Under the pieces are notes generated by a model. The model worked only from the letters and a program-made list of their open reading frames with translations, did no database searches and was not told the DNA's origin. This document shows, piece after piece, positions 11,581-63,946 of a DNA stretch of 64,000 nucleotides; the first letter of the stretch is position 1; each line of letters opens with the position of its first letter. This stretch comes from a virus (taxonomy: Duplodnaviria > Caudoviricetes). Both the position numbers and the translations under genes were made by a program. Where the stretch lies: positions 3,513 through 67,512 of IMG/VR virus record IMGVR_UViG_3300024246_000001, one strand, 5' to 3'.

Positions 11581-11817
11581 ATGCCACAACCACAAGAGCA
11601 AAAGTCAGACATCGGAATCATTGAGATCACTTACCAGCACGTGCATGATTGCCGGGCCGGTAGGGAGAAGAGGCCGTGCCAATTCTTCTGGGGCAACCAC
11701 AGAACACCCACTGATGAATCGGCGTTGCCGGGTGTGTGTTCGTGTGATCCACGCCAAGACGACACGAACCTGCTGCTCGACGGGCAAGTGTTCATCATTC
11801 ACAAAGGAGTGTGTTGA
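11581..11817 (+). CDS. small Cys/His-rich protein
   Basis: RBS GGAGG; HVHDC...CQFFWGNH...CSC. Confidence 0.5.
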   Translation: MPQPQEQKSDIGIIEITYQHVHDCRAGREKRPCQFFWGNHRTPTDESALPGVCSCDPRQDDTNLLLDGQVFIIHKGVC

Positions 11818-11818
11818 C

Positions 11819-12694
11819 GTGGCGATCGACCCGCGGCTCGTCGCACTCGGCTACGCTCCTGTCGGCTCGGCCCAGACCGGCCGCAAGCGACGCCTCTTTA
11901 TCACCATGGAAGGCCCGCCCTCAACCGGCAAGACCGACTTCCTGCGCCGCTGCCCGCCGCCGCAAGTGTGTATTGATTTGGACCGCGGCATGGAGGGGGT
12001 GTGCGAGACCGACATCTGGGGCAACGAGATCATGCGCAAGGTGATCGAGATGCCGGACCTGGATGTTGGCGGTAAGCTGGCGAGTGACGCCGAGCGCACC
12101 ATCGCCAAGAACTCCTACGCGCAGTTCAAGACGCTGGCCAAACAGACCTTCAAGGCGCTGGGCGAGATAGGGGGCGGCACACTGAGCATCGAAACAGGCG
12201 GGGCGGCCTATGCGCTGGCCCAGATAGCCAGGTTCGGCCAGATCGCGCAACTGGGTGAGGTGCCGGCGGCCATGTGGACCTCGATGCAGGCCGAGTTCCA
12301 GCAGATATTTCTGCAATATGAGGACTATCCAGTGAACTTGATCGTCAGCCACAGACAGGGCGCCAAGTTCGGCGGGGCCACCGGCGAGACGGACCTCAAG
12401 GGGTATAAGGAGATGCAGCACCTGAGCCAGATCCATCTTGAGTTCCAGCGCGTGTACCGGCGTACGCCGCTCGGCATGGTGGTGCGCGACGCCAGGGGGA
12501 TCGAGCAATTCGACCTTGTGAGGAAGGTCAAGAAGTGCCGGGCAAGATTGGCGTTGCTGGGGGCGGAGTTCCCGGTCGTGTTCTTGGACGACGACATGCG
12601 TGAGAGTATTGGTGGGGACTTCCTCACTGTGGCGCAGGCGGTGTTCCCGGACACTACTGTTGACGATTGGATGCCTACTGGGTTAGTGGCATGA
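11819..12694 (+). CDS. P-loop ATPase, AAA_24/Sak4-like recombination protein
   Basis: Walker A GPPSTGKT; IDLDRG; IVSH; RBS AAAGGAG. Confidence 0.75.
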   Translation: MAIDPRLVALGYAPVGSAQTGRKRRLFITMEGPPSTGKTDFLRRCPPPQVCIDLDRGMEGVCETDIWGNEIMRKVIEMPDLDVGGKLASDAERTIAKNSYAQFKTLAKQTFKALGEIGGGTLSIETGGAAYALAQIARFGQIAQLGEVPAAMWTSMQAEFQQIFLQYEDYPVNLIVSHRQGAKFGGATGETDLKGYKEMQHLSQIHLEFQRVYRRTPLGMVVRDARGIEQFDLVRKVKKCRARLALLGAEFPVVFLDDDMRESIGGDFLTVAQAVFPDTTVDDWMPTGLVA

Positions 12695-62794: not shown

Positions 62795-63124
62795 ATGACG
62801 ACAACTGGTAAGTTGAAATTTGGCGAGGTCGAGGATAGGGCGCAAGGGTGCCCGAACGGCTGCGGCCCGCTTGATGCTCCGAGCGCGAGCCCGCCTGATA
62901 CGGCAATATACCGATTCTGTAAACTGTGCGGCTATGCTGTCCTAATTGAGGATGTCATGACGACGACTCGGAACTCGAAATTTGCTGGTCGTGAGGCTAG
63001 GGCGGGAGCAGGTGCCCCGCAATCGAACTTGACGGTGGTGACGGAATTTGCTAAGGTGGGTTGTAACAATGCTCGGTACCTTGGCACGCAATCGCAAACC
63101 CCCCTACAGGCAACGATTCTTTGA
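62795..63124 (+). CDS. hypothetical Zn-ribbon protein
   Basis: CPNGC...CKLCG; RBS AAGGA. Confidence 0.4.
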   Translation: MTTTGKLKFGEVEDRAQGCPNGCGPLDAPSASPPDTAIYRFCKLCGYAVLIEDVMTTTRNSKFAGREARAGAGAPQSNLTVVTEFAKVGCNNARYLGTQSQTPLQATIL

Positions 63125-63133
63125 AATCAAAAG

Positions 63134-63211
63134 TGGTGCTCCGGGTGGGATTTAAACCCACGACCGACAGATTAGTAGTCTGCCGCTCTGTTCTGGCTGA
63201 GCTACCGGAGC
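63134..63211 (-). tRNA. tRNA with anticodon ACU (Ser codon) on an Arg-like class I body
   Basis: Full cloverleaf with encoded CCA; anticodon loop CT-ACT-AA; 5-nt variable loop; A20, C35, U36, A73. Confidence 0.85.
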
Positions 63212-63218
63212 CCAAAAA

Positions 63219-63315
63219 TGCGTCAGGCGGGACTCGAACCCACATGGGGGCCGGGTAACCGACCTTACCGGCGGAGTGACAATCCGCTGCGTCTACCAAG
63301 TTTCGCCACTGACGC
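63219..63315 (-). tRNA. tRNA with anticodon GUC (Asp) on a Leu-like class II body
   Basis: GCGTCAG acceptor; D-arm GCG-AAACTTGGTAGA-CGC; loop TT-GTC-AC; 27-nt variable region; T-loop TTCGAGT; A73; no encoded CCA. Confidence 0.85.
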
Positions 63316-63366
63316 GCACTGCTGTACCTAACGCCTCGTGTGCCTGATCCGCTGCGAGGCGTTGGC

Positions 63367-63395
63367 ATTTTAGGGTGGTGTCGTGCAATCCGCAA
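63367..63395 (-). promoter_or_regulatory. promoter of the tRNA pair
   Basis: TTGCGG-17-TAAAAT, followed by a 9-bp leader hairpin AACGCCTCG/CGAGGCGTT. Confidence 0.65.
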
Positions 63396-63685: not shown

Positions 63686-63946
63686 CTACCGCCGTTTGTC
63701 GAACGTACGCAGCATGTGCGACGGAGGAACCTCCAACGCATCCGCGAGCCGCAGCATGATTGTCAACGTCGGAACGTTCTCCCCCCGTTCGATGAAGCCG
63801 AGGTAGTCCGCCGCCATCTCCGCGCGTTCCGCGAGCGCTTCCTGACTCAAGCCGCGCTCTTTCCGCATAATGTGCAGAGCATCGCCGAATCGCTGCCCTT
63901 CCGGGCTCCGTGTCGTCCTTCGCGGCATGACTTGAACACTAGCCAT
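63686..63946 (-). CDS. XRE-family HTH regulator
   Basis: RKERGLSQEALAERAEM..DYLGFIERGENVPTL..MLRLADAL. Confidence 0.9.
   Translation of the reverse strand: MASVQVMPRRTTRSPEGQRFGDALHIMRKERGLSQEALAERAEMAADYLGFIERGENVPTLTIMLRLADALEVPPSHMLRTFDKRR

Follow-up and report, generated by a model that had tools for sequence, protein, structure and literature searches.

What use a soil phage has for a tRNA that is built like an arginine tRNA but carries ACU, an anticodon for the serine codon AGU, is the question raised by a gene on the minus strand of the window (63134..63211), the window being the 64-kb stretch of DNA analysed here, with which a contig of 67.5 kb ends; that contig has direct repeats at its termini and a completeness rating of 100%. 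The virus (62% G+C), whose genes include those for a helicase, GroEL, DNA polymerase and portal protein, is probably a lytic phage, because no tyrosine or serine recombinase, integrase or resolvase was found in the complete contig; nor was an arginyl-tRNA synthetase (ArgRS) gene found in the phage.

ARAGORN detects only two tRNA genes in the phage, both on the minus strand with 7 nt between them: upstream of the tRNA(ACU) is a class II tRNA(GUC) of 97 nt with a long variable arm and A73 (63219..63315, minus strand; ARAGORN and Rfam). Just 5' of the pair, the sequence forms a leader hairpin with the stem AACGCCUCG/CGAGGCGUU (63330..63363, minus strand), and beyond it is a weak promoter-like candidate, TTGCGG-17-TAAAAT (63367..63395, minus strand), which had been remarked upon from the sequence only and falls below the threshold of a consensus scan. 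No consensus promoter or terminator was called directly at the tRNA pair, the only promoter reported by the scan on the minus strand being at 63702-63673. An XRE-family helix-turn-helix gene (63686..63946; Pfam HTH_31/HTH_3) lies upstream on the same strand. A search with the portal protein returned only two short, close contigs, neither of which reaches the tRNA, and a search with the neighbouring 168-aa ORF found no relatives.

Structure and identity elements of the tRNA

ARAGORN predicts a 78-nt tRNA with the anticodon ACU on the minus strand at 63134-63211, which scores 63.8 bits against Rfam RF00005 (gathering score 29, E 5e-13) and has a fold z-score of -3.5. The acceptor stem GCUCCGG/CCGGAGC (7 bp) is followed by A73 and an encoded CCA; the D-stem GCUC/GAGC encloses a 10-nt D-loop, AGCCAGAACA; the anticodon stem GCAGA/UCUGU carries the loop CU-ACU-AA; the variable loop, CGGUC, has 5 nt; and the T-arm, GUGGG-UUUAAAU-CCCAC, has a stem of 5 bp. 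The tertiary core is complete (U8, A14, G15-C48, G18-U55, A19-U56, U54-A58 and G53-C61), and with a cloverleaf above the RF00005 gathering threshold the molecule has the characteristics of a canonical elongator. Every feature that the original prediction listed, namely the class I body with its short variable loop, the anticodon loop, A20, C35, U36, A73 and the encoded CCA, was found to be real by ARAGORN, Rfam and inspection of the sequence.

The determinants of ArgRS are A20, C35 and U or G at position 36, position 34 being free, and bacterial SerRS depends on a long variable arm. The phage tRNA possesses A20, C35, U36 and A73, but in place of an anticodon for an arginine codon (NCG or YCU) it has ACU, which reads AGU (Ser). 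The features of tRNA-Ser are missing from it, as there is no long variable arm and position 73 is A instead of G; the serine tRNAs of G001, a genome of the Thermoanaerobaculia, are all class II, with lengths of 89-93 nt. When 401 genomes from the class to which G001 belongs were searched for the D-arm, with at most two mismatches allowed, nine tRNA-Arg(UCU) genes were returned, and otherwise only the G001 homologue of the phage tRNA and one chance match in a coding region. The tRNA-Arg(UCU) genes of this class, the likely host class, are 78 nt long with the D-loop AGCCCGGACA, and the phage tRNA aligns with them without gaps, 53-57 of the 78 positions being identical; this alignment, with D-loops of the same length, upholds the numbering G18 A19 A20 that had been proposed. 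Within G001, the nearest tRNAs are other ACU tRNAs (75-89%), followed by Arg(UCG) and Arg(CCG) at 72-73%, and A20 is restricted to Arg tRNAs, ACU tRNAs and one odd tRNA(AGG). The odd tRNA at L255 (G001:C91:109043-109115) has an Arg-like D-loop (GGAU), the proline anticodon AGG, and C33 instead of U33.

The predicted arginine-type body is thus corroborated by A20 in an Arg(UCU)-like D-loop, by C35 and U36, and by the Arg isoacceptors being the nearest normal tRNAs of G001, and from these identity elements we infer that the phage tRNA would be charged with arginine. It resembles bacterial tRNA-Arg(UCU) of the argU type in its class I fold, its 78 nt with CCA, the length of its D-loop, A20, C32 U33 N C35 U36 A37 A38 and the 5-nt variable loop, but differs in having A34 instead of U34, so that it reads AGU (Ser) rather than AGA or AGG, in having A19-U56 instead of G19-C56, and in belonging to a family whose genes are extra in G001. 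They are extra because G001 already possesses full sets of both kinds, with all five Arg isoacceptors and four Ser isoacceptors beside its three ACU genes. A tRNA-Lys identity was also considered, as the top BLAST matches among GenBank phages are tRNA-Lys genes (70-78%); these matches are due to a shared anticodon stem, which is the same as that of tRNA-Lys(CUU) of G001. A tRNA-Lys would have U35 within a UUU or CUU anticodon and would lack A20, and the identity is excluded by C35, A20 and the Arg(UCU)-type D-loop.

A family of ACU tRNAs in soil bacteria and phages

Copies identical to the phage tRNA are found in two other contigs (L020 and L098), and G001 has a homologue (L248) that is 94% identical, with the same D-loop, the anticodon loop UU-ACU-AA and the T-loop UUUGAAU. 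In this homologue two acceptor pairs have changed with compensation and C32 has become U, and ACU is retained in spite of eight differences elsewhere, several of them compensatory. A sequencing error at position 34, for which the original prediction had allowed, is contradicted by the recurrence of A34 in these independent assemblies.

A pattern constrained at the D-stem and the loop CTACTAA and otherwise free matched at least 118 loci in metagenomes, 18 in viral contigs and 72 in genomes, among which ARAGORN called at least 174 ACU tRNAs, many of them from Acidobacteriota; at least 140 are distinct, and they come from soil metagenomes as well as from viral contigs and genomes. Exact patterns for the anticodon arm and the D-arm found no true match in viral contigs, only one chance match inside a coding region, and no BLAST match to the tRNA was found in E. 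coli genomes. Judged by these relatives, the phage tRNA belongs to a large family of Arg-type tRNAs that read AGY with ACU or GCU and occur in soil bacteria, especially Acidobacteriota, and in their phages, and literature searches for ACU Arg/Ser tRNAs or IS1-linked tRNAs found no description of such a family.

The family also bears on the unusual elbow of the phage tRNA, which had been read as a compensatory exchange of G19-C56 for A19-U56. Among the matches listed, the 142 distinct ACU tRNAs have a 19:56 pair that is G-C in 129, A-U in eight and C-G in five, with no mismatched pair (the raw script count was 123, eight and five with six odd calls, which were D-loop mis-numberings fixed by eye), and this covariation throughout the family confirms the compensation. 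The D-loop has GA in six of nine unrelated phage tRNAs that have the T-loop UUUAAAU. Also among the matches listed, A20 is present in approximately 130 of the 142 ACU tRNAs (~92%), and in a set of 141 distinct ACU tRNAs all helices covary, with several Watson-Crick types per pair, while the acceptor ends are mismatched in 42; in the Thermoanaerobaculia subfamily, the pair 29:41 occurs in four compensated variants.

Several branches of the family are distinctive. The C19-G56 elbow, a second type of compensated swap, occurs with the D-loop GCAU and the T-loop UUGGAAU in the ACU tRNAs of L056, L074, L075, L100 and L035. In a conserved Bryobacterales subfamily (L162, L165, L197, L213 and L216), position 20 is U rather than A, the anticodon stem contains two U-U mismatches and there is one additional base in the T-stem; this tRNA may not be a normal substrate of ArgRS. 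Phage-like contigs of ~42 kb, some of them from the human gut (L039, L044, L093, L095, L135-L137, L141, L143, L144, L147 and L148), share an ACU tRNA in which the 3' strand of the acceptor is unpaired with the first three bases; this end of the tRNA may have been reconstructed at an attachment site.

It is extremely improbable that the phage gene is merely a decaying or mis-sequenced, functionless copy of tRNA-Arg(UCU). Its anticodon is a single base away from UCU, and mismatched acceptor ends occur in some members of the family, as noted above; against this, the same sequence is present in three contigs, its stems are perfectly paired and its tertiary pair is compensated, the G001 homologue has kept ACU while diverging elsewhere, and no fewer than 140 distinct ACU relatives exist. 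By these comparisons, the phage tRNA is real and structurally selected, not a decayed copy.

IS1-family transposases and the AGU codon

At eight genome loci, a homologous IS1-family transposase (~293 aa, 57-97% identity) begins ~90 nt downstream of the tRNA on the same strand. The transposase family, named 'IS1 family transposase' in the sources, has at least 8000 members, and when it was sampled by transposase alone, an Arg-type tRNA was found upstream in all five informative contexts (ACU in three, GCU in two). Among the matches listed, a transposase is located within 400 nt of 28 of the 131 ACU tRNAs that have enough downstream sequence, and of none of the 14 on viral contigs. The phage tRNA has the class I body, A20 and anticodon (ACU or GCU) of the family, and an IS1 transposase immediately downstream is absent.

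The 13 transposases of the Thermoanaerobaculia subgroup contain 103 AGT codons versus 24 AGC (81% AGT), compared with 21% T at other NNY codons (odds ratio 15.7); the associated P-value overstates independence because the sequences are related, but the effect is still large. The bias is absent from other transposase subgroups. AGT-rich transposases accompany ACU tRNAs at L154, L219 and L260, all in G001, and at L156, L172, L173, L177 and L208, and homology between these tRNA-IS copies extends from nucleotide 1 of the tRNA exactly to the stop codon of the transposase. The enrichment of AGU in adjacent transposases constitutes a coupling of codon to anticodon and therefore speaks for use of the tRNA in translation; decoding of AGU is thereby indirectly supported, and the gene has probably been kept for reading AGU rather than being a broken one.

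Which amino acid the transposases require at AGU was examined in an alignment with an 11-gene core, in which AGT never occurs at the serine columns conserved in the family. At position 38, within the helix-turn-helix motif TV.[RK]LL, AGT stands where outgroups have R or K, and alternates with CGG and CGC inside the subgroup; at position 183, AGT stands against R, G or other residues in the outgroups, the nearest of which have CGG. Positions 111 and 114 are invariant AGT, and the outgroups have Gly at the former and Asp, Asn or Ser at the latter, which fits serine better than arginine. The comparison covers five informative AGT columns whose signal is mixed; arginine is only weakly favoured over serine.

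These columns are also relevant to the suggestion, which we consider quite improbable, that the tRNA supplies extra capacity for reading AGU with serine or some harmless residue, tuning the use of a rare codon in the manner of bldA without missense. AGU-rich transposases do adjoin the tRNA, the outgroups have small or polar residues at columns 111 and 114, and the phage itself has AGU at conserved serine positions (described below), but such a carrier of serine would be expected to have a long variable arm and the G73 that is missing in most family members, and would not be expected to conserve A20 in about 92% of those among the matches listed. Moreover, the host tRNA-Ser(GCU) reads AGU already, which leaves no reason for the preference of AGT over AGC or for the purging of AGT from serine columns.

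Another proposal concerns A34 itself. If A34 were converted to inosine, the product could be an arginine tRNA for AGA (ICU reading AGU, AGC and AGA), and if A34 were left unmodified it might read all AGN loosely, as happens with the four-codon boxes read by certain mitochondrial and Mycoplasma tRNAs whose A34 is unmodified. The loop CU-ACN-AA is indeed like that of tRNA-Arg(ACG), the natural substrate of TadA, but TadA recognition includes G36, where the phage tRNA has U36; the codon coupled to the anticodon is AGU specifically; and G001 already has tRNA-Arg(UCU) and tRNA-Arg(CCU). Because the sister tRNAs in IS1 contexts carry GCU, which is unable to read AGA or AGG, the codon set under selection appears to be AGY. 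Either form of this proposal is very unlikely, and the expanded AGN reader that had been put forward as one possibility is disfavoured by the alternation of ACU and GCU in the family, both of which read AGY only.

AGT makes up 30% of AGY codons in the phage (other NNY codons have 20.5% T), occurs in GroEL at the conserved Ser319 and at the S/T position 330, and is exchanged for AGC or TCN, or the reverse, in 25 of 35 changes between phage variants. A change of genetic code in the phage was rejected on these three grounds, all of which indicate that AGU is used as an ordinary serine codon, and so any insertion of arginine at AGU would be mistranslation. Since the phage does not avoid AGU, an active arginine-inserting tRNA would be expected to damage phage proteins.

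The mobile module and the possible role of the tRNA

L020 is a 254-kb bacterial contig on which Pfam searches of the ORFs identify rpmH, rnpA and yidC. In blastn comparisons it is 100% identical to the phage over 63228-63102 and again over 63103-63034, with a 979-bp IS1-family element between the two segments and the dinucleotide GG duplicated. The element stands 32 nt downstream of the identical tRNA, and L098 breaks at the same point. Because L020 has an IS1 element inserted where the phage sequence is uninterrupted, the phage has an empty insertion site (63102..63103). The 195-nt stretch (63034..63228, minus strand), whose left end is set by the start of L020 so that its true extent may be longer, is by this alignment a shared mobile module. 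That the 195 nt shared by phage and bacterial contig might be attP and attB was considered and rejected, the phage being complete and having no tyrosine or serine recombinase. The element of L020 (L020:128-1106), which lies upstream of rpmH, rnpA and yidC, has no obvious terminal inverted repeats and only the 2-nt (GG) duplication, which is unusual for IS1; it is not enriched in AGU, with one AGT versus seven AGC.

The module is not confined to these contigs. In L276, a class II tRNA(UGC) that is 79% identical to the partner tRNA of the phage is followed by an Arg-type tRNA(GCU) and then by an IS1 transposase. Of the loci fetched, only L276 and L098 share the 9-bp stem of the leader hairpin, which precedes the tRNA pair in both. 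The two-tRNA module of the phage with its leader hairpin is, on this resemblance, homologous to that of L276. The D-arm of the partner tRNA(GUC) matches that of G001 tRNA-Leu(UAA) at every position; the partner also has A73 and a variable region of 27 nt. Class II tRNAs with other anticodons (UGC, CCC, CCU, UAG or UUA) are found near other ACU tRNAs at L026, L103, L037, L105, L203 and L215. No convincing terminal inverted repeats bounding a mini-transposon around the tRNA pair were found.

Whether the tRNA is the target of the IS1 elements or their cargo can be addressed with the three tRNA-plus-IS copies of G001, in which the IS are 86-93% alike, the adjoining tRNAs are 77-78% alike for the phage-like copy, and the upstream DNA is unrelated; because the IS are more alike than the tRNAs, homing of the IS next to ACU tRNA genes is favoured over carriage of the tRNA. 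XRE genes flank the 94% identical tRNA of G001 (the context of L260). At L260:10171-11173 (+) and 11732-11959 (-), a phage-like ACU tRNA is opposite a toxin-antitoxin-like pair, a 156-aa ORF followed by an XRE helix-turn-helix gene, and close to a DUF3467 gene and a second XRE gene, an arrangement reminiscent of the XRE gene next to the tRNAs of the phage.

From such settings it might be supposed that the tRNA does not decode at all, and is instead kept as a structured landmark. It could be a safe harbour at which IS1 elements home, could provide a promoter and RNase P and RNase Z processing to the mRNA of a transposase downstream, or could be a decoy for toxins that attack tRNAs. IS1 elements are situated at the tRNA 3' end or within 32 nt of it, the greater likeness of the G001 IS copies points to homing, XRE and toxin-antitoxin-like genes are close by, and some irregular acidobacterial tRNAs are charged yet unused in translation (Mukai et al. 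2017, PMC5389517). A landmark would have no need, however, for A20, U33, A37, an intact 19:56 pair or an encoded CCA, and it would leave unexplained both the AGU enrichment of adjacent transposases, which matches the anticodon, and the limitation of anticodon variation to ACU and GCU. We regard this explanation as unlikely.

The explanation that we prefer, and hold with no more than middling confidence, is that the tRNA is a functional elongator derived from tRNA-Arg(UCU) by a change of U34 to A, charged with arginine and causing some missense at AGU, and is present in the phage as mobile cargo. The host ArgRS, reading A20, C35 and U36 and indifferent to position 34, would charge it with arginine; U36-A37 should receive t6A; A34 would form a Watson-Crick pair with the U of AGU; and the tRNA, competing with the host tRNA-Ser(GCU), would place arginine at some of the AGU (Ser) codons. 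The tRNA may act as a private decoder, tying production of the protein of an element to the presence of the tRNA. What the phage holds is the head of the two-tRNA module, the Leu-type tRNA(GUC) and the tRNA(ACU), without a transposase and at an unoccupied IS target site. Because the genes of the phage use AGU as normal serine, the tRNA is most likely horizontally acquired mobile cargo there, and its expression would be predicted to cause low-level Ser-to-Arg mistranslation.

A bolder version, possible but doubtful, would assign AGU a private meaning, arginine, conferred by ACU and GCU tRNAs: IS1 elements would home beside these genes and place AGU at positions where arginine is needed, and phages would take up the tRNA pair, of which the Leu-type member would read GAC, to reprogram decoding during infection. 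If this were true, active transposase would be made only where the tRNA is expressed.

To our knowledge, natural tRNAs in which the body and the anticodon are mismatched are rare, and the known cases are the allo-tRNAs and the Pro/Ala tRNAs of Streptomyces. In the latter, a tRNA-Pro with an alanine anticodon is a natural, conserved mistranslating tRNA that has a dedicated synthetase paralogue. The phage tRNA likewise combines the identity set of one amino acid with the anticodon of another, but the phage lacks an ArgRS gene, arginine would be inserted at serine codons, and the family is linked to IS1. The bldA tRNA-Leu(UAA) of Streptomyces inserts the correct amino acid at rare TTA codons, and resembles the present case in that a single tRNA serves a rare codon that clusters in certain genes, permitting translational control; it differs in that here the body predicts an amino acid other than the standard meaning of the codon, and the dependent gene encodes a transposase. 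The closest published work on irregular acidobacterial tRNAs is that of Mukai et al. 2017 (PMC5389517), who described allo-tRNAs and irregular tRNA polycistrons of Acidobacteria and proposed a missense function, which for some was shown in E. coli; ACU is not mentioned in the main text of that paper. In allo-tRNAs the acceptor/T arms are 8/4 or 9/3, the variable arm is long and the identity is that of serine (PMC5389517). Soil or acidobacterial origin, a mismatch of anticodon and body, and tRNA pairs near toxin-antitoxin and transposon genes are common to those irregular tRNAs (PMC5389517) and to the family described here, whereas the phage tRNA has a canonical 7/5 class I body with arginine marks and a 5-nt variable loop, and is not an allo-tRNA. 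The partnership of these tRNAs with the IS1 family and the AGU-biased transposase subgroup appear to be new.

The compensated 19:56 pair, which occurs as A-U and as C-G, provides a clean natural experiment on the tRNA elbow. More broadly, the family would add to the mismatched tRNAs a kind that puts arginine at serine codons, is common in soil bacteria and phages, is structurally selected, and is tied to transposases with matching codon usage, and it would make testable the questions of conditional missense decoding by mobile elements, homing of insertion sequences to a tRNA gene, and missense tRNAs of phages.
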